Shown: positions 19,251 to 40,388 of the stretch, one piece after another | Numbering within the stretch: the stretch's first letter is position 1 | How the letters are laid out: the number at the start of each line of letters is the position of its first letter | Source of the DNA: a candidate division FCPU426 bacterium | GTDB taxonomy: Bacteria > Oederibacteriota > Muellerivitia > Muellerivitales > Muellerivitaceae | NCBI GenBank assembly: GCA_963771075.1 | Contig: CAVYSE010000007.1 | Coordinates: forward strand, 1 to 64,000 | DNA length: 64,000 nucleotides | Direction: 5' to 3' | Notes under the pieces: model-generated | The model's input: the letters and a program-made list of their open reading frames with translations, nothing else | What the model was told of the DNA's origin: nothing | The model's database searches: none | Position numbers and translations under genes: made by a program

Positions 19251-19264
19251 CGGAGGGGATAAAA

Positions 19265-19534
19265 TTGACTGTTGAATTTATTGCTGATTTGGCGACTCGT
19301 GCTCTATGGGTGACTCTGCTTGTATCCGCGCCCATTTTAGGGCTTGGCTTGGCTGTTGGCGTTGCGGTTTCCATTTTTCAAGCGGTAACACAGATTCAAG
19401 AAATGACACTAACGTTTATTCCAAAAGTGATAGCAATTTTCATGGCAATCCTGATCTTTGGGAAATGGATGATTCTTATTTTAATTAATTTTACCTCGAA
19501 TCTTTGGAGTAATTTACCCAATTACGTCAAGTGA
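19265..19534 (+). CDS. fliQ: Flagellar export gate protein FliQ
   Basis: SIFQAVTQIQEMTLTFIPK. Confidence 0.98.
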   Translation: MTVEFIADLATRALWVTLLVSAPILGLGLAVGVAVSIFQAVTQIQEMTLTFIPKVIAIFMAILIFGKWMILILINFTSNLWSNLPNYVK

Positions 19535-19540
19535 GGGACT

Positions 19541-20326: not shown

Positions 20327-20342
20327 CGCAAAGGGATATATT

Positions 20343-21416: not shown

Positions 21417-21518
21417 CAATGGAAACCATTAAATTTCAATTAAGTAAGAATGATTAATATTTAATTTAAGGCTACAATACCAGTTCGCTAAGTATAGACA
21501 AATATTTGCGAGGGAAAG

Positions 21519-23600: not shown

Positions 23601-24790
23601 GAATCAAGCGCTACGAAGCACCCACTATTCAAGAAGCCCTTATGAAAGTAAAGAAGGATTTGGGGCCTGAAGCGGTCATTTTATACACGAAAACTTTCCG
23701 AAAAGGCGGGGTGTTGGGACTTTTTGGAAAACTCGTGGCCGAAATTACAGCGGGGGTTGAACTTAATTTAATGGATGATATGGCCAAGCGGAAAGGCGCA
23801 ACCGCAACAGCCCCGCCTATTTTGGAGCGCAATGAAATTCCATTGTCTCGCACCGTATCTACTGGACCTGGCCGCTCCATTGGCACATTGGATCCTGCTC
23901 GCACTAAGGTGAAGGCTCTTCAACGAGAGCTAAATGAAATGAAAACATCAAGTGTTGCCAATTTGATCAAGGAAATGCAAAAACCTGACAACGGAACCAT
24001 CCTTTCGGATGGATACAATCGGCTGAAGAAAAAGTTATCAAAGCAGGAAGTCGAGGAATTTTTTATCCAAAAAATCATCAAGGGGATGATTCAAGAGAAA
24101 ATTGATCCGGAAAATCATGGTGAAGTTTTTGCCTGGTTGAACCGACAGGTGGCTTCTTCTTTGAAAATAGCAGCGCCCCTGTCTTTTACGGGATTTCAAA
24201 AGATTATTGCTTTTGTTGGGCCAACAGGAGTTGGAAAAACGACGACTTTGGCAAAATTGGCCGCTCGCTTTAGTTTGGTAGAAGGAAAAAGAGTTGCAAT
24301 GATCACGGCGGATACCTATCGCATAGCGGCAACCGAACAATTGCGGACCTATGGACGGATCATGGGGATCCCGGTGGAGGTTGCAAATGGGGTGGATGAA
24401 ATAGGAACGGTGATAGCCCGCCATAAAAATATGGATTTAATCCTATTGGATACGGCCGGACGCAGCCCCTCGAACGAAGAACAAATGGAAGAACTTAAGC
24501 AATTTATAGGTAAAAGCCATGCGGATGAAATCCATTTGGTATTGTCTGCAACTACAAAATATCTAGATATGATCCGAATTATCGAACGTTTTGGTATTGC
24601 CGTTCCTTTGAATCGAATGATTTTTACAAAATTGGATGAAACGCGGTATTACGGGGCGTTATTAAATCTAATGAACAATTTTCAAATTCCTCTTGCTTAT
24701 TATTCAACGGGTCAAAACGTTCCTGATGACTTAGAAGTGCCTCAAATCCCAGTAGTGTCGGAAAGAATTACTATGGCTTTGTTGGGCTGA
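23597..24790 (+). CDS. flhF: Flagellar biosynthesis SRP-family GTPase FlhF
   Basis: GPTGVGKTTT, DTYRIAA, DTAGRS, TKLDE, GQNVPDDL. Confidence 0.96.
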   Translation: MRIKRYEAPTIQEALMKVKKDLGPEAVILYTKTFRKGGVLGLFGKLVAEITAGVELNLMDDMAKRKGATATAPPILERNEIPLSRTVSTGPGRSIGTLDPARTKVKALQRELNEMKTSSVANLIKEMQKPDNGTILSDGYNRLKKKLSKQEVEEFFIQKIIKGMIQEKIDPENHGEVFAWLNRQVASSLKIAAPLSFTGFQKIIAFVGPTGVGKTTTLAKLAARFSLVEGKRVAMITADTYRIAATEQLRTYGRIMGIPVEVANGVDEIGTVIARHKNMDLILLDTAGRSPSNEEQMEELKQFIGKSHADEIHLVLSATTKYLDMIRIIERFGIAVPLNRMIFTKLDETRYYGALLNLMNNFQIPLAYYSTGQNVPDDLEVPQIPVVSERITMALLG

Positions 24791-24803
24791 AGAAAGGGTT
24801 TTC

Positions 24804-25709
24804 ATGCAGGATCAAGCCGAAAAACTTCGTCAATTAGTAGGGAAGTTAAATACCCAAGAGATCCCTGCTTTTTTAGCCCCGCCTAGTGGGCTGTGTCGAA
24901 TCGTGGCGGTGACAAGCGGAAAGGGTGGGGTTGGTAAAACGAATATTTCCGTCAATTTTGGACTTTTACTGGCTAAAAAAGACAGGCGTGTTTTACTGAT
25001 GGATGCCGATATGGGATTGGCGAACGTGGATGTCATGATGGGAATTATTCCTCCACATACCCTGGCCGATGTTTTAAATGGTAAAAAGCGTCTTTCAGAA
25101 ATCATACTCAAAGGGCCGCTGGGGTTGAGATTGGTGGCATCCGGGTCAGGTGGTGTTCAAGAGCTGGCTGAATTAACCGAAATTCAAAGGAACCGATTCC
25201 TTCAAGACCTTTTGGAGCTTCAAAACCAAGAGGAGGTCATTTTAATAGATACGGGCGCTGGCCTTCATCGCAATGTCTTGGCATTTGTTTTAGCCGCAGA
25301 TGAAGTGATTGTGGTAACCACCCCTGAACCCACCGCTTTGATGGACGCCTACGGAATGATCAAGACGATATATCGCGAGAAAAAGAACGCTAAAATCTCG
25401 GTGGTTGTCAATATGGCATCTACGGTTTCCGAGGGAAATGAAGCGGGAAGAAAGTTAGTTATTCTTTCTAAACGATTTTTATCGTTGGAAATCGCTTATT
25501 TAGGATCTGTCCCTCGAGACATGGGGATGGTAAGGGCCGTTAAAGAGCAAAAACCAATTATTCTTTCGTCTCCATTGAGTCCAGCGGCTCTTAGCATGAC
25601 CCGAATCGCTGATGCCTATTTCTCTGGTAAAATGGCCGCAAGTGAGGGGAACCTCACTCAGTTTTTTAAGAAAGTCACCCTGCTTTTTGGAGGGAATAAC
25701 CCTTCTTAA
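24804..25709 (+). CDS. flhG: Flagellar number regulator FlhG/FleN (MinD-like ATPase)
   Basis: MQDQAEKLR, SGKGGVGKT, DADMGLANVD, TPEPTALMDAY. Confidence 0.94.
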   Translation: MQDQAEKLRQLVGKLNTQEIPAFLAPPSGLCRIVAVTSGKGGVGKTNISVNFGLLLAKKDRRVLLMDADMGLANVDVMMGIIPPHTLADVLNGKKRLSEIILKGPLGLRLVASGSGGVQELAELTEIQRNRFLQDLLELQNQEEVILIDTGAGLHRNVLAFVLAADEVIVVTTPEPTALMDAYGMIKTIYREKKNAKISVVVNMASTVSEGNEAGRKLVILSKRFLSLEIAYLGSVPRDMGMVRAVKEQKPIILSSPLSPAALSMTRIADAYFSGKMAASEGNLTQFFKKVTLLFGGNNPS

Positions 25710-25795
25710 GTCGTGATACCTATTCCAGGAGTCGTTACAAATTTTTTGATTTCAAAATTGAAGTGAAATAGAAAATTTAAGGTTAGGAGAAACAA

Positions 25796-26206
25796 ATGGC
25801 AGATCAAAATAAAGGAAAACAATTTTATGAATTGACTCGAGAAAAGCCATACGGTCTTTTTCATATGATTTTAGTCGGCGGGACGGCATGCGCAGTCCTG
25901 GCTTTTTTGATCGTGTCTTTGGTCGGGACTTATGAAGGTTTGGCAATGGATTCGATCATTCTAGGATTCCTAGCGGCGGTTCTTTTGGGGTTTTTGGTGG
26001 GAGGTTTGTTGACTTGGTTGGCGATTCAATATATCAGCCCCATCGTGGAACGCATGGATCACGAGAAAGAAATCCCGGTCCCTGAGACAACCATCAATGA
26101 ATCGGTTGGCCCTTTGGAAGGTCCATCCCCTTCAGAGGAATCGGAAGATAAAGGCCAATCAGTCGATTTTGTGTTTCCGGAAATATCACCGGATCAGCAA
26201 AGCTAG
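25796..26206 (+). CDS. Hypothetical two-TM membrane protein with acidic tail
   Basis: AGGAG RBS, two hydrophobic helices; lies between flhG and fliA. Confidence 0.7.
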   Translation: MADQNKGKQFYELTREKPYGLFHMILVGGTACAVLAFLIVSLVGTYEGLAMDSIILGFLAAVLLGFLVGGLLTWLAIQYISPIVERMDHEKEIPVPETTINESVGPLEGPSPSEESEDKGQSVDFVFPEISPDQQS

Positions 26207-26216
26207 CGTCTTCTAA

Positions 26217-27059
26217 ATGACACAAGAGAAAAATTTAAAGGAGGTCTGGGCAAAATACTTAATAAATAAAAAGGATCCTGAATCCAGGGATATTCTCGCC
26301 CAAAATTATCTTTTTCTTGTGGACGCTGAAGCCCGAAGATTATTAGCCCGTTTACCTGCGAGGGTTTATTGGGAAAAAAAAGATGACTTGGCATCGGCGG
26401 GAGCAATTGGTTTATTGAAGGCCCTTGATCTTTTTAATCCGCCGATTGAAAAAAAAGACGACCCGGGTAGAGCTTTTGAGGCTTACTCGCGGTATCGCAT
26501 TCGCGGCCAAATGGTTGACGAGCTACGGGGTATGGATTTTGCGCGCCGCAATCTTCGAAAACAGGCACGACTTATTCAAGAGGCGGAAAAAAAGATAGAA
26601 CTTAAATTTCAACGATTTCCTCAACCTGAGGAGATAGCCAAGGCCTTAGGTGTGGATTTGGAAGTGTTTTATGATTGGGTGGCAGAAATAAATATGCTGA
26701 ACCTGCTGTCCCTTGATGCGGAAATACAGGGTTTAGGGGATGCCGGATCCTGGGCTGAAACATTGCCGGACGATAAAGCAGAGAATCCGCTTGATAAAGT
26801 GGAGATTCAGGAGAAAATTGATCAGGTTACCCAAGCCTTGAAAAAATTGGGCGAAACAGAACAAAAGGTTTTGCAACTTTACTACATGGAAACCTTGACG
26901 TTTAAAGAAATTGGAAGGGTTCTTCGGGTCAGCGAATCAAGGGTTTGTCAAATTCACCATATGGCAGTATTTCGTTTACAGGAACTTGTTGAAGGAGGAA
27001 AGGCCCATGGCAGTCACCAAGGATATGAACGGCTACATGACTATAACTACCGAAAATGA
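26217..27059 (+). CDS. fliA: RNA polymerase sigma28 factor FliA/WhiG
   Basis: DDL.SAG.IGL, YSRYRIRGQMVDELR, LTFKEIG.VL.VSESRVCQIH. Confidence 0.95.
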   Translation: MTQEKNLKEVWAKYLINKKDPESRDILAQNYLFLVDAEARRLLARLPARVYWEKKDDLASAGAIGLLKALDLFNPPIEKKDDPGRAFEAYSRYRIRGQMVDELRGMDFARRNLRKQARLIQEAEKKIELKFQRFPQPEEIAKALGVDLEVFYDWVAEINMLNLLSLDAEIQGLGDAGSWAETLPDDKAENPLDKVEIQEKIDQVTQALKKLGETEQKVLQLYYMETLTFKEIGRVLRVSESRVCQIHHMAVFRLQELVEGGKAHGSHQGYERLHDYNYRK

Positions 27060-28698
27060 CGGGACTTATTTGACTGTTTTCCCTCCTTCGGGAAAAGGGG
27101 TAAAGATCACCCTGGAAGACGTTAAAAAAGAGCTAATGAAAAGCAAGGTAAACCCCGATAACCCCGTTATGCTGACTCAAATTGTTTCACAGGCCAATGG
27201 AAAGCCCCAAAAAATAGTGAATCAAAAAGTCGCCACATCGCCTGGTCAGGACCAAGTATTTGTTGAAATAAGTGATGATGAAATGTCGGCCAAATTGACC
27301 GTCGTCCCTCCACAGTCAGATTCAGGGCAATTCTCGACCATTGATGATGTCCGGGAGGTTTTAAATCGCCGGAACGTTGTTTATGGAATCGATGAAACCC
27401 GCATGTCGGAAGTTGCCGCAAAGTTAACCCAATTGACCTCTTCCAAGAATATTTCTGAACCGATTGAGATTGAAATTGCCTTTGGAACACCCGTGACGAA
27501 TGGGGAGGATGCCAGGGTTGAGTATCTGTATAAAAAGACCGAAGAAACTGAAAAGCAAGCTCCGGTCCTTGAGGAAACCGAGGATGGCCGCGTCGATTAC
27601 CGGGCAGTTCATAAAATTGACAATATTTTAAAAGGGACGGTTTTAGCTCGAAAAATTCCACCCACTAAGGGTGTGTCGGGAATGACCGTCACTGGGAAAG
27701 CCATCGAGGCCAAGGATGGACAGGACATCGATGTACAGGCCGGCAAGGGTGTGGTGGTATCCCCCGAGAATAAGGATGAATGGTTAGCGGATAGTGACGG
27801 CCAAGTGATAGTTAAGGATAATAAAATTTCGGTAATGGCTCTTTATGAGATACCTGGAGATGTCAATTTGTCCACCGGTAATCTTGATTTCATTGGAACT
27901 GTTATCGTACGGGGCGATATCAAGGATGGGTTTAAAGTTTTTGCGGGGGAAGACTTGATTGTGAATGGGGTAGTGGAGGGTGCAGAATTAAAATGCGGTG
28001 GGAAACTGACGATCGTCGGCGGTGTCAGCGGGAATGATAAGGGGAAAATTGTTTGCCAAAGCGATGCAAATATAAAGTATATCCGTAACTCGATTGTTGA
28101 AGTCGGTGGAAATTTGTCCACTTCGCAAGCAATTATGCATAGTAAGGTGACGGTAGGTGGAAAGGTCACTGTGGCCGGGAAAAAAGGGGTCGTTGTGGGA
28201 GGCCAGGTGATTGCCGGGATTGAAGTGAACGCCGCTTCAATGGGGTCTAATTTCGCTACCCCGACCGAAATCATCGTGGGCGAGGCTATCGGGCTCAGGG
28301 ATGAGATCCAAAAAACGGATGTGGAATTAAAAGCCTCGGTTGAAAATCTGGATAAGACCAAGAAGGGAATACAGTTCCTTAAGGATCTCCAAACAAAAAT
28401 GGGCGGTAATCTGCCTCCTGACAAAAAAGAATTGCTTACCAAGTTGACCCGCGCCCAATTTAAACTGATGGCGGATACCAAAGCTCTTGTGGAGAAAAAA
28501 CAGGAACTTGAAAAGATCGATCAACAGGGAGCGGAAGAAAGACACCGGCTAGCAAAAGTGACGTGCATGGGAGTGATTCACACGGGGGTTAAAATAACGA
28601 TTAACAAAGCGTCCCGGCAAGTTTCCGAAGAATTGAAATATTGTACGCTGACCGAGTCCGATGGTGAGGTGAAGGTGGGTCCGTACAGGGGTAATTAA
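27007..28698 (+). CDS. FapA-family (DUF342) flagellar assembly protein
   Basis: GRVDYR, KIPPTKG..G.TVTG, GDVNLSTGNLDF.G.V.V.G beta-helix motifs. ATG at 27007 has an AGGAGG RBS and overlaps the fliA end. Confidence 0.9.
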   Translation: MAVTKDMNGYMTITTENDGTYLTVFPPSGKGVKITLEDVKKELMKSKVNPDNPVMLTQIVSQANGKPQKIVNQKVATSPGQDQVFVEISDDEMSAKLTVVPPQSDSGQFSTIDDVREVLNRRNVVYGIDETRMSEVAAKLTQLTSSKNISEPIEIEIAFGTPVTNGEDARVEYLYKKTEETEKQAPVLEETEDGRVDYRAVHKIDNILKGTVLARKIPPTKGVSGMTVTGKAIEAKDGQDIDVQAGKGVVVSPENKDEWLADSDGQVIVKDNKISVMALYEIPGDVNLSTGNLDFIGTVIVRGDIKDGFKVFAGEDLIVNGVVEGAELKCGGKLTIVGGVSGNDKGKIVCQSDANIKYIRNSIVEVGGNLSTSQAIMHSKVTVGGKVTVAGKKGVVVGGQVIAGIEVNAASMGSNFATPTEIIVGEAIGLRDEIQKTDVELKASVENLDKTKKGIQFLKDLQTKMGGNLPPDKKELLTKLTRAQFKLMADTKALVEKKQELEKIDQQGAEERHRLAKVTCMGVIHTGVKITINKASRQVSEELKYCTLTESDGEVKVGPYRGN

Positions 28699-29349: not shown

Positions 29350-29988
29350 ATGGATAAAATAAGCAACCCAAATCCATTGGTGCCTGATTCGGGACTTAAC
29401 GTACAAAATCTGCCCAGAGATTTCAGGGATGGTGATACGGGGTTAATCGGTGCGGTATTAGCTTCTGGGACTTACTTAACGGTTTTACGGGATGGTACTA
29501 AAGTCAAGGTGAAGGGGCCGTTGGGATTGGAAGTTGGAAATCCTGTGAGGGTATTTCTTTCCCCGGCTGATTCAACGGCAGGGGTGAAAGGGAGTATACC
29601 CAGGACTTTGCTTTTGGAAAGTGAAGCGATATTGGCCTTGACCGCCCTGCTTCCGTTAGCGTTTGGTGGGAACGGTGCTAAGGCTAAAATTGAAGTTTAT
29701 ACTCCTAAGGAAAAAGTAAACACAAATAAAAAAAAAGTTATTTATTTCATAATTGCCCTCACTACAGAGCGTTTGGGCGATTTACAATGGAGCATTCATT
29801 TGTGGGGGAGGAACGCTGAAATTCAGCTTTTTTGTGGTGGAAAAAAGAATGAAAACGATATTCGAAATCTTCTGCTTGAGGTCGAAAACTCGGTTCGAAA
29901 GGCGGGATTTCTTTTAACAGGATCCGTCCAAAGGCTCGACGGGCCTTTTCAAGTCCCTCAGGGTTTTAGACTTGATTGGATGGCTTGA
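29350..29988 (+). CDS. Hypothetical protein with FliK-like C-terminal domain (YlqG-like)
   Basis: FIIALTTERLGDLQWSIHL resembles the Flg_hook/T3S4 domain; precedes the flhB-like gene. Start uncertain (29329 or 29350). Confidence 0.6.
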   Translation: MDKISNPNPLVPDSGLNVQNLPRDFRDGDTGLIGAVLASGTYLTVLRDGTKVKVKGPLGLEVGNPVRVFLSPADSTAGVKGSIPRTLLLESEAILALTALLPLAFGGNGAKAKIEVYTPKEKVNTNKKKVIYFIIALTTERLGDLQWSIHLWGRNAEIQLFCGGKKNENDIRNLLLEVENSVRKAGFLLTGSVQRLDGPFQVPQGFRLDWMA

Positions 29989-30284
29989 ATTTGAAAGCTG
30001 CACCAAGAAAGAAAAATCCACGCAAAGCCGCAGTCGCCTTGAAATACGACCGAGCGACCATGATTGCGCCTCGTGTTGTCGCAAAAGGGCAGGGATTAGT
30101 AGCGGAAAGGTTAATCGAACTAGCAAGGAAAAACGGTGTTCCGGTCGTTGAAGATAAATTGTTGATTGACATGCTGGATTCTTTGAACATAAACCAGGAG
30201 ATTCCTGGTGAGCTTTATCAAGTAGTGGCTGAAATATTGGTTGCGGTTTACCGCGCGGAAACCGCTCGTAAAGCGAAGCTTTAG
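29976..30284 (+). CDS. FlhB C-terminal-like protein (EscU/YscU/HrcU family, FlhX/YlqH)
   Basis: AVALKYD....APRVVAKGQGLVAERLI and EIPGELYQVVAEIL. Confidence 0.92.
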   Translation: MDGLNLKAAPRKKNPRKAAVALKYDRATMIAPRVVAKGQGLVAERLIELARKNGVPVVEDKLLIDMLDSLNINQEIPGELYQVVAEILVAVYRAETARKAKL

Positions 30285-30324: not shown

Positions 30325-32547
30325 TTGTTGCCGAAACAGATTCATTCGCGCCCAATAGTGGTGGCGAGAAGGGTGAGAGAATTGAACAAATTAACTACAC
30401 TTAAAAACGTGTTGGTTGAGGAGCGGAATGTTTTCCGCATATTTCGTTTGTTACCATTCTTGTTCGGCTGTTTTTTTCTTACTTCGACAGCTTTTTCACA
30501 ACTAGTTGAACCTTATTTTGCTCGTCCCAATAGCTTGGGAATAGGTCCGCGAGCCATGGGAATGGGCGGGGCTTTCGTGGCCATCGCAGATGATGCTTCG
30601 GCGGCATATTGGAATGTTGCGGGTTTATCCCAGTTATCCTCATATGAACTTTCGGTCGCTAGTGCTCCCACATATTTCACTGAACACATCGTCGGCGGCA
30701 ATCAAGCCTTTGGATTCCCCTATTACGAGTCCATGCAATTTTTGATGCCTATCGCCAAAGAAAACACCTTGGGAATTTCCTTTTTTCGCCCATTCCATCC
30801 CCAGATTAATTTTTACTCAGCCGCGACTTCTTTGACACCCTTGCAAAGCGGGGAGGCGAGTTATTTACAGAATCCCACCTTTCAAGAGAGTGAAATTGTC
30901 TTGTCTTATGCGGCTCGTTTTTCAGCGATTCAAAACTTCTCCGTGGGCATCAATGTTAAAAGGATAACGAACGATCCTTATTACATACGCTATTTTGGAA
31001 ACAACCAAGGTGTTTCCCAAAATTTAGCCGGAGCTATTCCAGTAATTGGCTATGGGGTGGATCTTGGCGTCCTTTTTAGAATTCCAATCACGAAATACAC
31101 CGAGGAATTACGCTTAGGGCTAGCTTTAAATAATTTGGTTAGCCAAATTCAATACTCACAAGGAATTACTTTTGACGATTCAGCGACTTCGGGTATTTTA
31201 ATGGGCCAACCCTTGATTGTGAGCGAAGGGGCGGGCTGGGGAGGCCAACTGATTCCGCCCGAAATTATTTTGGGCTTGGCTTATAAGAATAATTTTCTTT
31301 TCAAAATTCGAAATATAACGGATTTGGATTTTGACCAGGTATCGTCCTCAAATTACGATGATTCATCTCTCGCCTTGGCCAATAAATATTTGCGTTTTGG
31401 AACTGAATTTTGGTTTTTCAAGGATATCTTGAGTTTGCGAGCCGGTTATTCAACACCCTTTATCGCCCCTGGAACGATCTCAATGGGGTTAAGTGTTCGT
31501 GTCCTGAACGGCGATTTCCAAACTGATCTGGCATATTTGATGCCGGTGAGTCCGGAACCTGATATCCAGACCGGCTCTGCTGTGGCAACTACCGACCAGG
31601 GGGGGATCAATTATGAACCTTTCCATATTGGACTGACCTATCGATTCGGGGGTGGGGAAGAATTGCCCCCGCCCAAGGTGAGTGCTTATGTTCAGCCTAC
31701 GTCTTTTGTCCCATCTCAGGGTGAGTCGTCTACTTTTTATTTGGACACGACGGAAGATGTCCCTGTTCATCATTGGAGTGTCTTAATTTATGATCAAAAC
31801 AATCATTTAGTGAGGGGCATGAGGGGTCAGGGACCTCCACCCTCGAAGGTGGCCTGGGGTGGGGAAGACGACCTCTATAGGCCTTTACCACCAGGAGTCT
31901 ATACATGGGCTTTCCAAGTTGAGGATAATTTGGATCATATCGGTTCAAGTCCAGTTCAAACGATTGAACTGGTAACCCCGGCTCCAGTCGTTGCAAAGGA
32001 CGCATCAAAACTAATGAGCATTCGCCAACAGGAAAACGCCCTTTTGACCCAGGAAAGAGCCAAATTAACGTCTTTGGCTCAGCAAACCTTAAAAGCTTTA
32101 TTAGGGGAAGGCTCATCTAACACAGCAGCTGCTGCGGTGACTGTGTCAACACCGGTCGAGAGCCAAGGCAATACCCAGTATCCGCAAACGGGGGGGGTAC
32201 CATCTTTGGGGTTCCCCACCTTGACGCCTGATCAGCCTTTGAACGCTCATTTTGACAAAAATGACCAAGGCGATGAAATCGTTGCGGTGAGTTATAAATC
32301 CCAACAAAGTTATGTGCCTTATCTTTATCAAGAAGCCGCAGATGTCATTAAAACAACGGTCAATTCTGTAGGAACTGGTTTAAAAGAAATTTCTACTCGT
32401 GTATATTATGGGAAAAATGAACTGGATTTGGTGACGTCGACTCAAGCCGCCGCCAACTACGCTTCGGGCAAGATAAGCCAATTGCAGCTGATGCAGTTGT
32501 CGGATATCCACATTAACGGTGTGAAGGTGGGGCCGAATGGTTATTAG
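30325..32547 (+). CDS. PorV/PorQ-like outer-membrane beta-barrel fused to an FlgD-Ig-like domain
   Basis: Signal-like hydrophobic stretch, G.GPRAMGMGGAFVAIADDASAAYWN.AGL, SLRAGY; then W.V.IYD....LVR......PP..V.W.G.D......PGVY. Start uncertain. Confidence 0.8.
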   Translation: MLPKQIHSRPIVVARRVRELNKLTTLKNVLVEERNVFRIFRLLPFLFGCFFLTSTAFSQLVEPYFARPNSLGIGPRAMGMGGAFVAIADDASAAYWNVAGLSQLSSYELSVASAPTYFTEHIVGGNQAFGFPYYESMQFLMPIAKENTLGISFFRPFHPQINFYSAATSLTPLQSGEASYLQNPTFQESEIVLSYAARFSAIQNFSVGINVKRITNDPYYIRYFGNNQGVSQNLAGAIPVIGYGVDLGVLFRIPITKYTEELRLGLALNNLVSQIQYSQGITFDDSATSGILMGQPLIVSEGAGWGGQLIPPEIILGLAYKNNFLFKIRNITDLDFDQVSSSNYDDSSLALANKYLRFGTEFWFFKDILSLRAGYSTPFIAPGTISMGLSVRVLNGDFQTDLAYLMPVSPEPDIQTGSAVATTDQGGINYEPFHIGLTYRFGGGEELPPPKVSAYVQPTSFVPSQGESSTFYLDTTEDVPVHHWSVLIYDQNNHLVRGMRGQGPPPSKVAWGGEDDLYRPLPPGVYTWAFQVEDNLDHIGSSPVQTIELVTPAPVVAKDASKLMSIRQQENALLTQERAKLTSLAQQTLKALLGEGSSNTAAAAVTVSTPVESQGNTQYPQTGGVPSLGFPTLTPDQPLNAHFDKNDQGDEIVAVSYKSQQSYVPYLYQEAADVIKTTVNSVGTGLKEISTRVYYGKNELDLVTSTQAAANYASGKISQLQLMQLSDIHINGVKVGPNGY

Positions 32548-34105
32548 GTTTTGCGCATTATTCTTATTATTATTTTCAAGTTTTGTTCGAACGGCTCAAG
32601 CCGGAGCATTTGATAAGGGCGGTATTACAGGGGATGGGGCGAGAGCGGAAGGCATGGGAGGGGCGTTCGCTAGTGTGGCGGATTCCTCGGATGCCGTATA
32701 TTACAATCCTGCCGGTTTGGTTCAGGTTTTGCGCCCGGAAATTTCAGGTTTGGGTTCAGTTCTATTAAACGGGTTAGAAGATCTTTTCGTTTTTACTTAT
32801 GTTCAGCCTTTTGGCGATCAAATGGCCTGGGCCATTTCTACTCAACAGTTGCTTTTCTCCGATGGTAATGAGAACGATCGTATTTATATTGGGAGCTTTG
32901 CAGCGCCTTTGGCGATTGATAAATCCATTTCTTTTGGGATTAATGCTAAATATTATGGCGTAGATTCCCCTTCTCAACCCGATTTTCAGGCAAGCGGTTT
33001 TGGCTTGGATATGGGTTTTCTATACCACCTTCCCATTTATGACCCGCGCTATGGAAAAGAAATTAACATTGGTTTATGCGCGCAAGACTTGGACACGAGT
33101 ATTCAATGGCAAAAGGGTAATACTGACCCTATTGCCCTTTCAGTTAAGGGCGGGTTTAGTTATGAGTTTACGGATGATTTGGAAACTTCCTGGGAATTTG
33201 AAACAATCAACGATCCAACCGTAGGGCAACATACCTTGTTGCATGCAGGCATTGAGGGTTGGTTTTTCTCAGATCAATTGGGGCTTCGGACAGGCTATTC
33301 TGATTTTATGACCGAGTCAGGTCAATTCACCGCAGGTATAAGTTACCGTTCCCGTACCTGGGGGATTGATTACGCCTATATAGGTCATCCCGAGTATTTG
33401 GGGTCTTCTCATCGTATTGAAGCCAGCTGGAGATTTGGCGATTCGTTTTTGGGTAAAGTGAAGAGTTTTATACCCGAGGGTGTAACATCCTACGTGGATG
33501 GGGATATTATTACGCTTCGTTGGATTAATTCTCCTTCCATTTCATTAGCTGGTTACAACGTCTATTTTTCCAAAGTAACGGGGAGTGGTTACGTGAAAAT
33601 CAACCAGAACCCCATTAAGGCCAATTATTATTCCTTGCGGGGATTGGAGAAAAACACCCGATACTATTTCGTTGTAACTTCTTTGACAAATACCATTCCC
33701 CCGGTCGAAAGCCAATATTCCAGGGAGGTTGTTGCGGGGACCACTTCTGCTCCAGGAGCTCCTGTAGTGGTTCAAAGTGAGCTTCAAAACGAAGGAGTTA
33801 TTGACATTGCCCGACAAGCCGGAATGGGTGGGTTCCCTGATCCTAGTAAAAACGGTTTAAGGGGCTATAATATCTACGTTTCTGAGGTCTCGGGAGGTCG
33901 ATTCGATAAGGTGAATGCCCAACCCATTGCGAATGTTCCTACCTACTTGGTCCGGAAATTGAAGGTTGGTCAGCGTTATTTCTTCTCGTTTACCTCGGTT
34001 GGGTCGGATGGGACGGAAAGTGCTAAATCCCGTGAAGTTTCGGCTGTTGCCTTACCTTATACCAGTATTTCGCAACCACTCTCAACGACTTCCACTCCTC
34101 GTTGA
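32537..34105 (+). CDS. PorV/PorQ-like beta-barrel fused to two fibronectin type III domains
   Basis: Signal peptide, GARAEGMGGAFASVADS.DAVYYNPAGL, IDYAY..H..LG.SHRI; two FN3 repeats (GYNVY/GYNIY ... GL..NTRYYFVV, L..GQRYFF). Confidence 0.83.
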   Translation: MVIRFCALFLLLFSSFVRTAQAGAFDKGGITGDGARAEGMGGAFASVADSSDAVYYNPAGLVQVLRPEISGLGSVLLNGLEDLFVFTYVQPFGDQMAWAISTQQLLFSDGNENDRIYIGSFAAPLAIDKSISFGINAKYYGVDSPSQPDFQASGFGLDMGFLYHLPIYDPRYGKEINIGLCAQDLDTSIQWQKGNTDPIALSVKGGFSYEFTDDLETSWEFETINDPTVGQHTLLHAGIEGWFFSDQLGLRTGYSDFMTESGQFTAGISYRSRTWGIDYAYIGHPEYLGSSHRIEASWRFGDSFLGKVKSFIPEGVTSYVDGDIITLRWINSPSISLAGYNVYFSKVTGSGYVKINQNPIKANYYSLRGLEKNTRYYFVVTSLTNTIPPVESQYSREVVAGTTSAPGAPVVVQSELQNEGVIDIARQAGMGGFPDPSKNGLRGYNIYVSEVSGGRFDKVNAQPIANVPTYLVRKLKVGQRYFFSFTSVGSDGTESAKSREVSAVALPYTSISQPLSTTSTPR

Positions 34106-34125: not shown

Positions 34126-34911
34126 TTGCCTAGTGGCCTTTATATCGCTGCTTCTGGGATGAACTCGGATATTGTCCGTCAAGACGTTATAGCCAATAAT
34201 TTGGCGAACGTAAGCACGGTGGGTTTTAAGCAAAATCGCTCCGTGGATGTGGCTTTCCCTACATACCTAATCGCACGGCTTCATGATCAAAAGCTGAAGG
34301 TTATGGATGGCACTGCTGAACTTCGCCCCTCTATTGGTTTCATGGGTGGAGGTGTTATTCCCCAATCAAATGCAACGGACTACGCTCAAGGAGCACACCT
34401 GGAAACAAAAAGTCCGTTGGATTTCGCCTTGAATGGTCCTGGCTTTTTTGCTGTTCAGGGTGCCAATGGAAAAACTTATTTGACTCGGGATGGAAATTTT
34501 AATTTGGATGCCAATGGTAAAATTGTCACCAAAGAAGGTTTGACCGTCTTGGGGCATAACGGGGAAATTTTTGTAGATGGCAATCAATTGACCTCCGACC
34601 AGGAGGGAAACCTTACGGTGGATGGTAAGGCCTTGGACCAGCTTTTAACCGTGAAAGTCCAAGACGAAAACAACATGACCAAATTCGGCCATTCATTATT
34701 TCAAATCGGCCCTAAAAACAAAGTAGAACTCATGCCGAATGACGTTCAAGTGCAGCAGGGGTTTTTGGAGCAGTCCAACGTGAGTTCGGTCACGGAAATG
34801 GTAAATATGATCGATACCTATCGGTCTTATGAGCTGAATTCCAGGATCATCGCCTCCTATGATCATTTAATGGGCGAGGCTGCCTCGCAAATTGGTTCGC
34901 TTCACGTTTAA
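34126..34911 (+). CDS. flgF: Flagellar basal-body rod protein FlgF
   Basis: DVIANNLANVSTVGFK, LDFAL.GPGFF, TRDGNF, LEQSNV..V.EMV; precedes flgG. Confidence 0.88.
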   Translation: MPSGLYIAASGMNSDIVRQDVIANNLANVSTVGFKQNRSVDVAFPTYLIARLHDQKLKVMDGTAELRPSIGFMGGGVIPQSNATDYAQGAHLETKSPLDFALNGPGFFAVQGANGKTYLTRDGNFNLDANGKIVTKEGLTVLGHNGEIFVDGNQLTSDQEGNLTVDGKALDQLLTVKVQDENNMTKFGHSLFQIGPKNKVELMPNDVQVQQGFLEQSNVSSVTEMVNMIDTYRSYELNSRIIASYDHLMGEAASQIGSLHV

Positions 34912-34932
34912 AAAGGATTTGTAGTGTATTTC

Positions 34933-34984
34933 ACGGCCGGACTGCTATTGCGGAGGCCGTTTTACCGCCGAACGACAGAGGCGG
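34933..34984 (+). promoter_or_regulatory. Putative structured RNA element in the flgG 5' leader (two hairpins)
   Basis: ACGGCC-GGA-CTGC-TATT-GCGG-A-GGCCGT followed by CCGCC-GAACGACAGA-GGCGG. Same first-hairpin architecture at 46983. Confidence 0.6.
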
Positions 34985-35027
34985 AGGTGTTCTGGCTTCG
35001 CATAGTTAGAAATTAAGGAGGGCTTCC

Positions 35028-35825
35028 ATGATGCAGTCACTTTACACGGCCGCGACAGGCATGGCCGCGCAGCAGCTGAATCTTGATACCATTTCGAACA
35101 ACTTGGCCAACGTCAGCACCACGGGGTTCAAGAAGCAAAGGGTTGATTTTCAGGATCTCCTTTATATCAACCTAAAAACTGCAGGCACTCCGACCTCGCC
35201 CGAGACGAATACCCCCGCTGGTTTGCAAGTCGGAGAGGGCGTACAACCCATCGCAACCCAACGTATCTTTACCGAGGGTTCGGTCCAAAACACCAACAAC
35301 CCCCTTGATATCCTGATTCAGGGAAATGAAAGTTTCTTCCAGGTCACATTGCCTAATGGGGAAACGGCCTATACCCGGGATGGTTCATTTACCCAGGATG
35401 GCAACGGTAATATCGTAACAGCCAATGGATATTTCCTCGATCCGCCCATTCAGCTTCCGGCGGATACGGCTTCAATTCAAATCACGGCCACGGGTCAAAT
35501 CATGGTCCAAACGGGTAATTCCACGACCGCAACTCAGATCGGTCAATTGGAATTAACCCGCTTCGTTAATCCCACGGGATTAACCGCGATTGGGAACAAT
35601 TTGTATTTGGCCACTCCCGCTTCTGGCGAACCTATCCAAGGAACCCCAGGCTCCACTGGTTTTTCCAATGTCCAGCAAGGCTCCCTGGAACAGTCCAACG
35701 TGGATGTTACCGAGGAAATGGTAAATATGATCGTGGCCCAGAGGGCTTACGAGTTAAATTCAAAGGCGGTTTCTACGTCCGATTCAATGCTTTATGATAT
35801 CTCCACCATGAAGCAATTCCCCTGA
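35028..35825 (+). CDS. flgG: Flagellar distal rod protein FlgG
   Basis: SLYTAATGMAAQQ, FQDLLY, GLQVGEG, EEMVNMIVAQRAYELNSK. Confidence 0.97.
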   Translation: MMQSLYTAATGMAAQQLNLDTISNNLANVSTTGFKKQRVDFQDLLYINLKTAGTPTSPETNTPAGLQVGEGVQPIATQRIFTEGSVQNTNNPLDILIQGNESFFQVTLPNGETAYTRDGSFTQDGNGNIVTANGYFLDPPIQLPADTASIQITATGQIMVQTGNSTTATQIGQLELTRFVNPTGLTAIGNNLYLATPASGEPIQGTPGSTGFSNVQQGSLEQSNVDVTEEMVNMIVAQRAYELNSKAVSTSDSMLYDISTMKQFP

Positions 35826-35840
35826 TGACGAATTAGCGGA

Positions 35841-36818
35841 ATGCGAGGAACTACTTTATCGCTTTTCTTCGTTTTGGGGTTTTACGTCCAAACGCTGTGG
35901 GCTTTGGAAAAACCTTTTACCGTGCGGTTGTTGGATCAGGCGACGGTTGCGGGACCTGATATCACCTTGGGGGATGTGGCCCAACTGGCAGGAGATGAGA
36001 AACCTTTTTTGGATCGCTTGGGCCACATGGTTTTGGAGCAAGCGGCTCCGGTGGGGAGTTCGGTGGTTTTGAATCGTTCTGCGGTCAATTCGGCATTAAG
36101 CCGGGAAGGTTATTCGACGGGTGCTGTGGTTTGGGAGGGAAGTGATGCCTGTCGGGTTTTAACCCAAGTCCAGGATGTATCACCAGACCAGTTATTGGAA
36201 TCGGCAAAATTATTTATCCGGGTCCAAACTGGGGAAGATGCGAAAAATCTGGACATCAAGCTCTTGAGTCCGACCAAAAACATCAAGATGCCCGCGGGAA
36301 AACTGGAAATCCATTTTCGCCCCTCCCTTATCGGCCAATATGAGGGGGTGCAGATATTGACGGCTGAATGTTCGACGGATGGCCATGCCGGCCGGGTTAT
36401 TCCGGTAAGGTTGAACACACAGATCTTTCGGTTGGTGGTGGTGACGAAAAAAGAGGTTCGAAAAGGGGAAAAATTTACTAATGCTAATATTGGGTTTGAT
36501 CGACTACCCAGCGATAAGGTTTCCAAGGGAACGTTACAAAAGCTGGAGGATGTCTTGGGCCGGTCGGCCGGTATGGATCTCAAGGCTGGAACACCGGTCC
36601 GGTTTAGTGAAATCAACGATCCACCGATGATCCATCGGGGTGAAGTGGTTCAAGGGCTGGTGATAACGGGGAACGTCGAGATTTCGGTTTCCGTGAGGGC
36701 CCAAACGGATGGTAGGGCTGGGGAAGAAATTGTGGTTGAGAATACGGACACTCACAAGGTTTTGAGGGCGAAGGTTCTGGATGAAAATAAGGTTCAGATC
36801 GATCAAAAGAAACCTTAG
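35841..36818 (+). CDS. flgA: Flagellar P-ring formation chaperone FlgA
   Basis: ITLGDVA N-domain, SAF domain, DG..GE.I.VEN..THKVL.A.V. Confidence 0.92.
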   Translation: MRGTTLSLFFVLGFYVQTLWALEKPFTVRLLDQATVAGPDITLGDVAQLAGDEKPFLDRLGHMVLEQAAPVGSSVVLNRSAVNSALSREGYSTGAVVWEGSDACRVLTQVQDVSPDQLLESAKLFIRVQTGEDAKNLDIKLLSPTKNIKMPAGKLEIHFRPSLIGQYEGVQILTAECSTDGHAGRVIPVRLNTQIFRLVVVTKKEVRKGEKFTNANIGFDRLPSDKVSKGTLQKLEDVLGRSAGMDLKAGTPVRFSEINDPPMIHRGEVVQGLVITGNVEISVSVRAQTDGRAGEEIVVENTDTHKVLRAKVLDENKVQIDQKKP

Positions 36819-36821
36819 CCG

Positions 36822-37457
36822 ATGGGGGTTGGCATGACAAAAAAAATATTTTTCCTAATCGCCCTTTGGGCAACCGGATGGGGTTTCTGGCCTCACGGTG
36901 CCTATGGGGATTCCATTTATCCGTTGGAAGGGGCCGGCTCCATTTATACCGAAAAAAGAGCTCACCGGGTGGGCGATGTCATTACGGTACTCATCCAGGA
37001 AGACACCCAGGCCAGCCAGGGTGCCAGCAGCCAGAATCAAAAAACAGCAAGTATTGCCTTGGGCGCTGGCACGGGCAATTTGGGCGCCGGTGGATATGGC
37101 TCCAGCCTCTTGAATACCAATAACCAAATTGGCGTGGGTGCCAGTTCCAACCATCAAGGCCAGGGCTCCACCAGCCGGGGGACGACCATTACGGGCCAGA
37201 TGACTGCCAAGATCATGTCCGTTCTTCCTAATGGAAATTTCCAAATCGAGGGAACCCGCTATGTCGAGGTGAATGAGGAAAAACAAACTGTTGAGGTGGT
37301 GGGCGAGATCCGGCCTGACGACATTTCCCGGGATAATACCGTTCCCTCCTCGCGGGTGGCTGACGCCAAGATCAAAATTACGGGGACGGGACCGGCTTCT
37401 GAAACGGCCAAACCCGGTATACTCACACGCGTTTTTAGCTGGCTGGGGCTTTTCTGA
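36822..37457 (+). CDS. flgH: Flagellar L-ring protein FlgH (no lipobox Cys)
   Basis: RA..VGDVITVLI.E, VLPNGN..IEG, GEIRPDDI..DNTV.SSRVADA.I. Confidence 0.95.
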   Translation: MGVGMTKKIFFLIALWATGWGFWPHGAYGDSIYPLEGAGSIYTEKRAHRVGDVITVLIQEDTQASQGASSQNQKTASIALGAGTGNLGAGGYGSSLLNTNNQIGVGASSNHQGQGSTSRGTTITGQMTAKIMSVLPNGNFQIEGTRYVEVNEEKQTVEVVGEIRPDDISRDNTVPSSRVADAKIKITGTGPASETAKPGILTRVFSWLGLF

Positions 37458-37471
37458 GGGGAAGGGAAAAA

Positions 37472-38593
37472 ATGAAAAATAGCGAATCTCCTTTTTTAAA
37501 ATGGGTCATTCTTTCTATGGTTTTCCTGGCCGTTTGGCCGGCTTGGGGTGCCCAGGTGCGCTTAAAGACAATCGCCCAAATCAAGGGGGTGAGAGAAAAC
37601 CAGCTGATCGGATACGGTCTGGTGGTCGGTCTCCAACGCTCGGGTGACACCCAAAGGGTTGTCTCCACCCTTCAAAGTATTACCAATATGCTTTTGCAGT
37701 TCGGGATCAAAATTAATTCGGACCAGATCCGTACACAAAACGTGGCAGCGGTCATGGTAACCGCCCAGTTGCCCGCCCTAGTCAAATCGGGAGATAAGAT
37801 CGACGTGGTTGTTTCCTCGGTTGGCGACGCGCGTAGCCTTCAAGGCGGCAATCTTTTGATGACTCCCCTCCAAGGGCCGGATGGACAGGTTTATGCGGTA
37901 GCCCAGGGTCCTCTTGCGGTCGGCGGGTATTCGGACAATACAGGTGAGTTTCCTCTCATCCAGGTGGATGCTACGACGACCGGGCGTGTACCCAACGGGG
38001 CCATGGTCGAGCGGGAAGTGCCTTCCTCCTTCATCGACAACAACACGGTTTCCATTTTATTGAATAGCCCGGATTTCAGCCAAGCTTCCCTTGTGGCCCA
38101 GGCACTGAACCAGCAATTCGGCGAACCGGTTGCCCGGGCCGTTGACGGCGCCCAGGTGGACGTGAAATTGCCTCCCAATTACCAGGACAACGTGGTGGAT
38201 TTCGTCGCGGCGGTAGAAGAAACACAGGTACAGACCGATTCCGCGGCCAGCCGGGTCGTCGTGAACGAGCGGACCGGAACGGTGGTCTTGGGCCAGGATG
38301 TTCGCATTGACGCGGTGGCCATTGCCCACGGCAATTTGCGGTTGGTGGTCAAAAAGACGACCGAAATTTCCCATGACGCCGTTTTTGGGCATGATGAGCT
38401 GACTCACACCACGACCGTTTCGGCCGAGGACACCGGCAAACAGGGGAACCTGGTGGTGGTGCCCGAGGGCGCCACCTTGTTGGACATCGTCACCGCGGTC
38501 AACGCAGTGGGCGCAACCCCGAGGGATCTCATCTCGATTCTTCAAGCCATCAAAGAATCCGGCGCGCTTCACGCCGACCTGACGATCCTCTAG
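37472..38593 (+). CDS. flgI: Flagellar P-ring protein FlgI
   Basis: GVRENQLIGYGLVVGL, NVAAVMVTA, SLQGG.LLMTPL, LISILQAIK.SGAL.A. Confidence 0.97.
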   Translation: MKNSESPFLKWVILSMVFLAVWPAWGAQVRLKTIAQIKGVRENQLIGYGLVVGLQRSGDTQRVVSTLQSITNMLLQFGIKINSDQIRTQNVAAVMVTAQLPALVKSGDKIDVVVSSVGDARSLQGGNLLMTPLQGPDGQVYAVAQGPLAVGGYSDNTGEFPLIQVDATTTGRVPNGAMVEREVPSSFIDNNTVSILLNSPDFSQASLVAQALNQQFGEPVARAVDGAQVDVKLPPNYQDNVVDFVAAVEETQVQTDSAASRVVVNERTGTVVLGQDVRIDAVAIAHGNLRLVVKKTTEISHDAVFGHDELTHTTTVSAEDTGKQGNLVVVPEGATLLDIVTAVNAVGATPRDLISILQAIKESGALHADLTIL

Positions 38594-38607
38594 GTCCGGA
38601 GGTTCCT

Positions 38608-39069
38608 TTGACCCCTTATGTGACGGCAGTCACCAATTTTCTTCCCTCCCCCCAATCCATTATGGGAACGGGCAGCGAGCCACTATCCACCAGCTCCCAA
38701 TTGGCGGCCCAGACCCTCTTGTCCAATTCCTATTTGTCCCACGCACCCGCCTTTTCAAAACAGGGACAGTTAGATCCATTACGCCCGGTATTCGACTTGA
38801 ATTCCGCCCATGTCCACACGGACGCTCAAATGAAGAAAGTCGCTCAGGATTTCGAGGCGATATTTCTGCGAATGATGCTAAAGGAAATGCGTGATTCCGT
38901 CGAGAAATCGGGACTCATGGGAAACTCCCAGGCCACCGACTTGTTTCAATCGATGCAGGACGAACAAATGGCCAACAAGCTGGCTGGCGCCGGCGGTATC
39001 GGCCTCGGGTCCATGGTTTATCAGCAACTTCAGAAAGATTATTCCGCCCAGCAAAAAACCACCAAGTAA
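38608..39069 (+). CDS. flgJ: FlgJ-like rod-binding protein (no muramidase domain)
   Basis: VAQDFEAIFL.MMLKEMR and GGIGL..MVY.QL. Confidence 0.9.
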   Translation: MTPYVTAVTNFLPSPQSIMGTGSEPLSTSSQLAAQTLLSNSYLSHAPAFSKQGQLDPLRPVFDLNSAHVHTDAQMKKVAQDFEAIFLRMMLKEMRDSVEKSGLMGNSQATDLFQSMQDEQMANKLAGAGGIGLGSMVYQQLQKDYSAQQKTTK

Positions 39070-39498
39070 ATGAATTGGGCCAACTGCTCCCGTTGCGGCC
39101 AGGCCTACACCCATGTCGAGGGAGGAAGGGATATTTGTCCCGCCTGCGTCCGGGTCGAAGATGACCATTACGGCCTTGTTTTTAGGTACCTATCCACCCG
39201 TCCTTCCGCCACCGCCCAGGAAATAGCCCAGGAAACCGGGGTGGATATCAAGGAAATCTACCGTTACGTCCGCGAAAACCGCCTTCAACTGATCAAGAAC
39301 GATACGGGCTTATTTTGCGAATCATGTGGTATCCCCATTTCCCAAGGAAAAATGTGCGAAAAATGCTTTCAAAAGCTTTCCGCCGATATTCAAAATGACC
39401 TATTGAAAACCAGGGAAAACCTAAAAAAATACCATAAAACCGACGTAGGAAAATTCGTCAAAGACCCTAAATATCTTAAAAAATATAGGGGCGAATAA
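39070..39498 (+). CDS. Flagellar operon protein of TIGR03826/YvyF type (Zn-finger)
   Basis: NCSRCG..., ICPAC, I..YVRENRL, CESCG.PI..G.MCEKC; upstream of flgM. Confidence 0.85.
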   Translation: MNWANCSRCGQAYTHVEGGRDICPACVRVEDDHYGLVFRYLSTRPSATAQEIAQETGVDIKEIYRYVRENRLQLIKNDTGLFCESCGIPISQGKMCEKCFQKLSADIQNDLLKTRENLKKYHKTDVGKFVKDPKYLKKYRGE

Positions 39499-39557
39499 AA
39501 GTTGCTCTTTTAAAGGCTTTTGCCCGCCAAAGATTCCCTCGAAAACCCACTTTTTAC

Positions 39558-39584
39558 TCAAGTTTTTCCTTTGGGACCCGTTAG
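39558..39584 (+). promoter_or_regulatory. Putative sigma28 promoter of flgM-flgN-flgK-fliK
   Basis: TCAAG-N14-CCCGTTAG; same pattern and spacing at 46006 and 49615. Confidence 0.7.
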
Positions 39585-39612
39585 GTTCTCTAGAAAACCG
39601 AAGGAGTTTCTC

Positions 39613-39900
39613 ATGAAAATCGAAGGATTTCAAAATATCCCGGCCATTCTTCAGTCGTTCCAGAAGTCGGCCCAGCCCGCGCCCAAATCCGAAACGGAAG
39701 CGGGGTCAAGTTCGGTATCGCTCAGTTCTTTCGGAGAGGTACTCCAATCCTTACAGCGTCAGTCGGCGCAAATCGCGCAAGGCCGCGCGGGGAAAGTGGA
39801 TCAGCTGGCTCAACAGGTCCAGTCCGGTCAATACCAGGTTGATCTCAACAAGCTCGCCTCCAAGATCGTCGAAGCCAACATCATCGATTTCAAGGGATAA
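39613..39900 (+). CDS. flgM: Anti-sigma28 factor FlgM
   Basis: AAGGAG RBS, MKI start, SVSLSS, R..KV..L...V.SG.YQVD..KLA.KI. Confidence 0.9.
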   Translation: MKIEGFQNIPAILQSFQKSAQPAPKSETEAGSSSVSLSSFGEVLQSLQRQSAQIAQGRAGKVDQLAQQVQSGQYQVDLNKLASKIVEANIIDFKG

Positions 39901-39902
39901 CC

Positions 39903-40388
39903 GTGAACGATCTGGTTCTAAAACTGGTGGATGAATTGAAAAGGGAAAGGGGCTGTTACCAGCGCCTGGCATCCCTGGCGGCGGAGCAAAAACAATTCTT
40001 GATCGCGGGGGACCTGCAAAAGCTGGGTGTCAATTTGAAAAAGCAGGAAAAAGAAGTGTTCGCCCTTTCCCCCTTGCTGGGTGAGCGCAATGACCTGATC
40101 GCGGCGCTGGGTAAGGAACTTCGACTTTCCAACCCGACCCTGGAGCAAATCGTGAAGAAGGCACCCATCGAGGTCGTGGAAGAACTGAAGAAGGCAGTGA
40201 TCGAGTTGGTGCAATCGGCGAGGGAACTGGAAAGCATCAATAAAGGCAACGAGAAGCTGGCCCATAACGCGCTGTCCCTGGCGGACGTGACGCTCAAGGC
40301 GTTGGTGGGAAAAGGCCGTACCCAGGCAACCGCCCCTTCCGCCAAACCGGCGGGGCAGGGCTCGTCGTTCGTCAACCGCGTCGTTTAG
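39903..40388 (+). CDS. flgN: Flagellar export chaperone FlgN
   Basis: Helical protein with N..N.KL...AL; lies between flgM and flgK. Confidence 0.85.
   Translation: MNDLVLKLVDELKRERGCYQRLASLAAEQKQFLIAGDLQKLGVNLKKQEKEVFALSPLLGERNDLIAALGKELRLSNPTLEQIVKKAPIEVVEELKKAVIELVQSARELESINKGNEKLAHNALSLADVTLKALVGKGRTQATAPSAKPAGQGSSFVNRVV

Follow-up and report, generated by a model that had tools for sequence, protein, structure and literature searches.

PorV, a type IX secretion system (T9SS) barrel protein, is a 14-stranded plugged beta-barrel that carries a family motif (6h3i chain F, 8gl6 chain F; NF033709, NF033710). Both features, the barrel by prediction, recur in two proteins, barrels A and B, whose adjoining genes lie in a flagellar cluster within a 64,000-nucleotide stretch of DNA from a candidate division FCPU426 bacterium (contig CAVYSE010000007.1; the whole stretch is called the window hereafter). 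Unlike PorV, A and B score below all family cut-offs, end in C-terminal Ig, FN3 and alpha/beta tails and are tied to flgF, flgG, flgA, flgH and flgI. The host genome carries an SprA-like gene, a likeness to PorV hosts that stays below the profile cut-off, and differs in that GldM was not found in the genomes tested. A second precedent is BamG, a FadL-family protein of the Bacteroidota beta-barrel assembly machinery (BAM), whose FadL-fold barrel is comparable to A and B (Z about 26) and which is a structural subunit of an outer-membrane machine, not a transporter (PMC12611786). BamG partners BamA and docks a surface lipoprotein (PMC12611786). A and B, by contrast, are linked to flagellar rings and have tails predicted to be periplasmic.

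Flagellar accessory rings, such as the FapH ring, the FlgP disk and the FlgO/FlgP/FlgT H ring of Vibrio, offer a parallel of another kind. Like A and B, they are encoded with motor genes, and the role that we propose for the barrels, bracing the outer membrane round the bushing, is theirs too; in Helicobacter pylori, the FapH ring guards the outer membrane as the motor rotates (PMC11756786). A and B further resemble such rings in being confined to genomes that carry the motor, although no likeness of sequence or fold was seen. FapH, moreover, is a lipoprotein on a filament-bearing motor (PMC11756786), whereas A and B are predicted integral beta-barrels of a filament-less system, in which they would form the ring. 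Finally, the hook-basal body of Buchnera resembles the present system in keeping the basal body, export gate, flgD, flgE and flgK while fliC is lost (PMC8109811). However, the reduced genome of Buchnera, an endosymbiont, no longer has motA and motB (PMC8109811), whereas here the motor is intact in genomes of 2-5 Mb, the hook proteins are enlarged and outer-membrane genes have been added.

Flagellar genes without a filament are uncommon. A classifier of motility based on FliC only is 99.5% accurate, and the same source flags rotor genes without a filament ("half a motor") as an open question (10.1101/2024.12.05.626484). fliC is missing in only about 2-5% of genomes with at least 25 core flagellar components, and FCPU426 is reported to have lost about 35% of its ancestral flagellar genes, which the section concerned leaves unnamed (PMC13277936). 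Goldbacteria have been contrasted with sibling clades without flagellar genes (PMC7031533). We found no description of the A/B barrels, or of a filament-less motor-bearing system in such a phylum, in the open-access literature, supplements aside. We regard the locus as coding for a novel variant of the flagellar machine, whose outer-membrane accessory is also of a novel kind: in 17 families, a complete motor without a detectable filament is accompanied by two dedicated outer-membrane genes.

Two barrel genes tied to the rod and ring genes

The barrel pair is located inside a 42-kb co-directional flagellar cluster, with flhX upstream and flgF, flgG, flgA, flgH and flgI downstream (Table 1). The first-pass annotation, made from the sequence without database searches, had described a barrel motif in both genes, an 11-nt overlap between them and a gap of 20 nt between the end of B and the start of flgF. 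All of this is read directly from the sequence, the motif being GPRAMGMGGAFVAIADDASAAYWNVAGL in A and GARAEGMGGAFASVADSSDAVYYNPAGL in B.

Linkage to the flagellar genes, for which that annotation had proposed a neighbourhood survey, is pronounced among 99 genomes of the phylum (23 families, labelled f1, f2 and so on). B orthologues were found in 64 genomes and 17 families. B and flgI stand on one contig in 53 genomes, and in 52 of these the B gene is 3.36-4.25 kb upstream of flgI on the same strand. Eight of the remaining B genomes carry the two genes on separate contigs, and three, all fragmented assemblies, have no flgI match. In families f3 and f10-f23, the block A-B-flgFGAHIJ-yvyF-flgK stands apart from the fli/flh genes, suggesting that the barrels moved with the ring genes through rearrangement. 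Among 157 PorV-family loci, flgF follows all 15 B orthologues for which downstream DNA is available, and no match to flgF, flgG, flgH or flgI was found near the 137 non-orthologous loci. None of the 27 genomes without both flgI and B has an A or B orthologue. B orthologues were picked by hand from profile matches, leaving out paralogue matches of about 30-36% identity; in genome G005, the match beside flgI was used and a second one, on a short contig, was excluded. Counts of genomes rest on B because the A2 profile missed A in family f3 at E 1e-25, although A is present there in G004.

What exceeds chance is this conserved linkage of the pair to the ring genes, not a PorV-like gene as such. 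The window's genome contains about 22 PorV-family loci (25 matches in 22 frames), so a PorV-like gene by itself is unremarkable here, and the view that such proteins are a Bacteroidota oddity in this setting proved wrong, the phylum having many of them. The same genome has 68 FlgD_ig matches and a split SprA-like gene, the first half of which scores 168 bits against a cut-off of 200. SprA-like genes occur in 92 of the 99 genomes, including those without flagellar genes, and pass the cut-off in 7.

Both proteins are relatives of the PorV/PorQ family that fall under the line. Their NF033709 scores are 81.5 (A, E-value 8e-23) and 72.8 bits (B, E-value 4e-20), below the cut-off of 90, and with NF033710, which describes PorV proper, they reach 32.8 and 19.9 bits against an equivalog threshold of 250. 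AlphaFold models have a mean predicted local distance difference test score of 75 for A and 79 for B. In these models a plug closes the barrel, which in B has 14 countable strands. Both proteins find their best structural match in PorV (Foldseek, VIA-align; Z 30.0 and 28.2), the A barrel aligning to 6h3i_F with Z 28.2 and a root mean square deviation (rmsd) of 3.4. FadL, TodX and chains of Bacteroidota BAM complexes follow at Z 26-27. Pfam Toluene_X (FadL/TodX) does not match the window copies of A and B, and reaches 17.7 bits in one orthologue, against a cut-off of 29.7.

The extra domains announced in the first-pass annotation are borne out, with one omission. In B, Pfam fn3 matches at 36.3 bits and the model contains two FN3 folds. 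A consists of a signal peptide, a PorV/FadL-fold barrel, an Ig domain of the FlgD type or T9SS C-terminal-domain (CTD) type, a helix, a low-confidence linker and an alpha/beta C-terminal domain; the Ig domain had been recognised, whereas the helix and the alpha/beta domain had been overlooked. The A Ig domain (residues about 445-552) has no Pfam match in the window copy, is above the FlgD_ig cut-off, at 27.1 and 29.4 bits, in the two distant orthologues that were scanned, and finds its best Ig-type structural match in the PorU CTD (Z 12.9, rmsd 2.3). Among the sequences searched, the profile of the alpha/beta domain matched A orthologues only, and an ESM Atlas search gave no usable match for it; fold searches barely probe this domain, and we claim no novelty for its fold.

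In the FadL-family fold, an even number of strands (14) places both termini on the periplasmic side, and the Ig and FN3 tails of A and B are for this reason predicted to be periplasmic. The barrel-Ig-OmpA order at the end of two paralogues in the genome speaks for such a placement of a barrel-fused Ig domain. Conservation over 14 diverse rows is 0.74 in the A Ig domain against 0.50 in the A barrel body, and 0.70 in the first FN3 domain of B against 0.66 in its barrel body. No conserved lipobox cysteine was seen by eye in the A and B alignments, and both are predicted to be integral barrels. A barrel tree unites A, B and two paralogues in one subfamily (support 98/98); neither A alone (67/87) nor B alone (82/79) is supported, some rows being cut at shifted starts. 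The two paralogues of this subfamily stand in non-flagellar contexts. A orthologues are 21-35% identical between main groups. A search of 1.84 billion representatives gave, among the 150 matches listed, about 18 that look like A orthologues, each resembling a family reference at 28-100% identity.

A motor with no detectable filament genes

Flagellin_N, which detects both FliC and FlgL, matched 13 of the 99 genomes and FliD_C matched 12; neither matched the window's genome (G000) or its 30 family members. One Flagellin_N match (G003, E 4e-7) was dropped as an epimerase-FlgL chimera at a contig end (L141:142-1332), probably a misassembly, which leaves 12 positives. Nothing in the window's genome matched Flagellin_C or the FliC, FlgL and FliD profiles derived from this phylum, and FliS and FliW were not found in four barrel genomes, the filament-type control genome G032 being positive. 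With positive controls, flagellin, FlgL and FliD were detected neither in the window's genome nor in 59 of the 64 barrel genomes.

The two traits exclude each other wherever a genome has a single flgI. Among 64 such genomes, 56 carry B without flagellin, 6 carry flagellin without B, none carries both, and the 2 with neither are 74% and 82% complete. All 5 genomes with both B and flagellin have two flgI and a second, separate flagellar system; in those fetched (G092 and G087), the second system includes flgL, fliC and fliD and has no barrels before flgF. Similarly, flgL is the next gene after flgK in 7/7 canonical loci and in 0/19 readable barrel-type loci. In unrooted trees of FlgI and FlgG, one branch separates the 14 barrel-type rows from the 7 filament-type ones (100/99 and 97/96). 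Six flgI loci drawn from 301 genomes of a PorV-rich sister phylum are canonical, with flagellin or FlgL nearby and no barrel match. Most genomes are incomplete metagenome assemblies; of a hand-typed list of 60 high-quality genomes, however, 36 have barrels and lack flagellin, including the single-contig G074. Genome G046 (99% complete, with neither flgI nor barrels) was rejected as a clean loss, its contig ending after flhG. On gene content, the barrel-linked system is a flagellar motor with no detectable filament genes, not an ordinary flagellum, a point overlooked in the first-pass annotation.

This system keeps the MS and C rings, export gate, rod, L/P rings and hook. MotA of the barrel-linked group is present in 58 of the 64 B genomes, and the MotA RREGLLGLE motif and the MotB aspartate motif, which we take to be the torque residues and the conserved stator aspartate, are each kept in 10/10 barrel-type loci fetched. 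The window copies read RREGLLGLE in MotA and WLLTYAD in MotB, with a recognisable N-terminal motif in FliM, and FliG of distant families is 66-73% identical to the window copy. Hook-related proteins are enlarged: complete FlgK measures 697-865 residues in barrel-type loci against 467-472 outside them, and FlgE 496-873 against 407-413. FliK has 669-1079 residues in barrel-type loci; in Salmonella it has 405 (10.1101/2020.03.25.007062). The window's genome also encodes FliA, FlgM, FlgN, FlhF/G and chemotaxis proteins. A genome scan with a sigma-28 consensus gave 276 relaxed and 0 strict sites; as no strict site precedes any gene, no late substrate was found.

What the barrel pair may do

That a complete motor was kept and two outer-membrane genes were gained points to a selected function, not to decay. 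The dedicated outer-membrane module suggested in the first-pass annotation is supported by strict linkage, co-occurrence, the fold ranking with PorV first and the barrel-Ig-OmpA paralogues. We propose, at about even chances, that in this module the barrels, instead of lipids, anchor an outer-membrane collar which surrounds the L/P ring of a rotary organelle that has a hook only. The proposal builds on the position of the genes at the head of the bushing operon, on conserved parts that would face the periplasm, and on the precedent of a FadL-family barrel in BAM. A and B would be exported by Sec and inserted by BAM, leaving their tails in the periplasm, and would pair and pack against FlgH/FlgI, taking the role played elsewhere by lipoprotein rings. 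As FlgL is missing, the axial structure would end at FlgK, giving a short, thick, FlgK-tipped hook spun by the motor. The motor might turn under high load, for example with its tip gripping a particle or another cell, while the collar would keep the outer membrane intact and the bushing fixed. Ring contact, localisation and rotation are inferred, rotation on the ground that stators and bushings are kept; a motor working against surfaces is the weakest step of the proposal.

We hold more tentatively, at somewhat less than even chances, a wider picture of an ancient, phylum-wide organelle derived from the flagellum. It would have a proton-driven motor, no filament, an enlarged exchangeable hook, a FlgK tip and two recruited T9SS-family barrels, the latter forming a new outer-membrane module that braces the motor or couples surface adhesins. 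If true, this would be a flagellar accessory anchored by integral barrels, those compared here being lipoproteins or periplasmic; it would link T9SS-family barrels to the type III secretion system of the flagellum, and it would add a third fate of the flagellum to those of swimming and the injectisome. The "half motor" question becomes testable with named parts, and for annotators a count of flagellar genes alone is no ground for calling such genomes swimmers.

Several observations weigh against these proposals. In the single-contig genome G074, the intact pair stands among unrelated genes, 262 kb from flgI. A CTD-bearing cargo gene precedes the closest paralogue of B (C7:223942), as would suit a shuttle role. 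FliK acts as a limit on hook length without being its strict determinant (10.1101/2020.03.25.007062), and long FlgK with Flagellin_IN-like inserts occurs in ordinary flagellates too. CheW was not found in several barrel genomes (4/5 in f3, G074, G075 and others), nor FliA in G074, which suggests that steering is dispensable there. Moreover, the 56 genomes with B and no flagellin are not independent, because the barrels and the loss of the filament go back to a single inherited event on a single branch, and the two may coincide without a causal link.

Among other explanations, the one that survives best, though we judge it unlikely, is that A and B are T9SS-like shuttles or display anchors that keep a surface protein with a CTD tag, or the CTD-fold domain of A itself, on their outer loops beside the hook and so couple adhesins to the motor. 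It draws on PorV as the top fold match, on the PorU CTD fold of the A Ig domain and on the SprA-like gene and FlgD_ig matches of the genome. About 8 of 17 other PorV-family paralogues come after a CTD-like cargo gene (judged by eye; 4 are backed by Pfam), and in families f22 and f23, though not in f1, f10, f13 or f15, an sprA-like gene is found some 10-20 kb upstream of the pair (Table 1). The T9SS-like system also appears to lack its usual motor, as GldM/PorM was not found in 8/8 phylum genomes, a Flavobacterium control being positive; GldL and GldN were found in 0/5 genomes each, in searches where no positive control gave a match. Against this explanation, A has no conserved cargo gene upstream among the loci examined, its Ig domain is internal instead of C-terminal, and in paralogues that domain stands before OmpA. 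Furthermore, SprA-like genes are found in 13/13 genomes of families f4-f7, all without flgI, which argues that secretion is independent of the flagellar motor. This weakens the flagellum-coupled T9SS-like system offered in the first-pass annotation; the stronger idea that the flagellar motor powers the T9SS was rejected, as SprA-like genes persist without the motor.

Rather more doubtful is a repurposed export or surface-sensing device, of the sort proposed for Buchnera (PMC8109811), in which the hook would serve as needle, FlgK as tip and the stators as load sensors, with A and B as an anchor and rotation of minor importance. As in Buchnera (PMC8109811), export gate, hook and FlgK persist in a system that lacks a filament; some genomes have lost CheW and FliA, and additional orphan copies of flgE and flgK suggest surface parts that can be exchanged. 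However, Buchnera lost motAB, whereas stator motifs, FliL, FliG and both bushings are kept here, no candidate effector was identified, and strict sigma-28 sites are missing upstream of genes. It is quite improbable that the system is a normal flagellum used for swimming, its flagellin having diverged beyond detection and the barrels forming an accessory ring specific to the lineage. The regulators, FlgN and chemotaxis genes of the window's genome, together with the incompleteness of most assemblies, leave some room for it, but five filament genes go undetected together in searches that find them in sister families, flgL never follows flgK in readable barrel-type loci, and 36 high-quality barrel genomes, G074 included, agree. 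The least probable explanation takes A and B for envelope proteins of a general kind or FadL-like transporters, tied to the ring genes by a shared promoter and without a part in the mechanics: FadL and BamG come near PorV in score (Z 26-27 against 28-30), the pair is detached in G074 and two same-subfamily paralogues are non-flagellar, but such a protein should persist in non-flagellated relatives, where it was not found (0/27 genomes; the three B genomes without flgI are fragmented), and its adjacency outlasted the rearrangement of the remaining cluster.

Gene models and neighbouring observations

Coordinates are collected in Table 1. Cluster genes were mostly named by Pfam and NCBIfam, and fliR, flhB, flhA, flhF and flhG by eye from translations.

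Table 1. Positions of the barrel genes, their domains, the flagellar cluster and related genes elsewhere
Feature	Position	Strand	Remarks
Remaining cluster (flgB, flgC, fliF, fliG, fliH, fliI, fliJ, fliO, fliP, fliR, flhB, flhA, flhF, flhG, fliA, fapA)	6749..28698	+	
motA, motB, fliL, fliM, fliN	13604..17785	+	Stator and switch genes
flhX (FlhB C-terminal-like)	29976..30284	+	Upstream neighbour in families f1 and f2; elsewhere in distant families examined
Barrel A gene	30325..32547	+	Longest ORF (open reading frame) 740 residues; likely start TTG 30382, 721 residues
A N-terminal plug and beta-barrel	30502..31656	+	Residues about 60-444; PorV 6h3i_F match
A Ig domain	31657..31980	+	Residues 445-552; T9SS CTD fold, predicted periplasmic
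A alpha/beta C-terminal domain	32215..32544	+	Residues 631-740
Barrel B gene	32537..34105	+	522 residues: signal peptide, plug, 14-stranded barrel, two FN3
B two FN3 domains	33464..34057	+	Residues about 310-405 and 418-507; predicted periplasmic
flgF, flgG, flgA, flgH, flgI, flgJ	34126..39069	+	Rod and L/P-ring block, travels with the barrels
yvyF-like gene, flgM, flgN	39070..40388	+	
Enlarged flgK	40398..42812	+	804 residues; next gene fliK, not flgL
Long fliK	42823..45935	+	974 residues to the indel near 45736; end approximate; relatives 669-1079 residues
flgD, small flagellar gene, flgE	46052..49179	+	flgD and flgE broken by indels; flgE of relatives intact, 496-873 residues
Second FliK-like gene, distant loci	L234:11076-13715, L132:7206-9800, L164:9416-11938		
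sprA-like gene near the barrel pair	G088:C14, G089:C91, G091:C51, G092:C13, G093:C5, G094:C2, G097:C1, G098:C76		

The true start of A is most likely the TTG codon, since it lines up in frame with the GTG codon at which two close relatives start. A short hairpin at about 30345-30366 precedes the likely ribosome-binding site of A and is kept in the two close relatives, although its flanks have diverged. Between 29900 and 34300, no indel is listed against independent contigs, whose cover is partial. A scan of 28500-36000 gave 16 promoter and 10 terminator sites against 10.5 and 9.8 in shuffles and is uninformative on a transcript break, and an Rfam scan returned a single tRNA and nothing else.

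Small indels clustered at 45700-48600 break fliK, flgD and flgE in the window. As the listed ones are absent from independent contigs (that of fliK near 45736 from three independent runs) and the genes of relatives are intact, the breaks look like assembly errors, and we rejected for the same reasons the possibility that the hook is a pseudogene. Structured leaders lie at 34912-35027 (before flgG) and 46950-47054 (before flgE), as seen with no shuffle control. The gene before flhX encodes a second FliK-like protein of 840-880 residues in distant families and 219 residues in the window (29329-29988).

Hook, tip and stator genes also occur in additional copies. The window's genome carries two near-identical orphan flgE (C7:251483-253402 and C8:91579-93495; 638-639 residues), about 40-50% identical to the operon flgE, which may be a real duplicate or an assembly repeat. 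Two tandem flgE genes are present in G003 (L140), and long flgK copies lie away from the flgI locus in three genomes (G050:C7:14142, G051:C20:20391, G091:C26:44232); hook and tip genes behave here like multi-copy surface genes. G001 has three tandem fliL genes (L139:4595-6085). Finally, motA-like genes occur without flgI in G013, G014, G017 and G018, and in two extra copies in G074; these are possibly non-flagellar stator pairs.

Downstream of flgE, at 49789-55048 of the window, come genes for a Kelch protein and for a secreted Thr-rich protein, together with a second PorV-family barrel pair. This second pair exceeds the NF033709 cut-off, and its position is kept in six loci of family f1.

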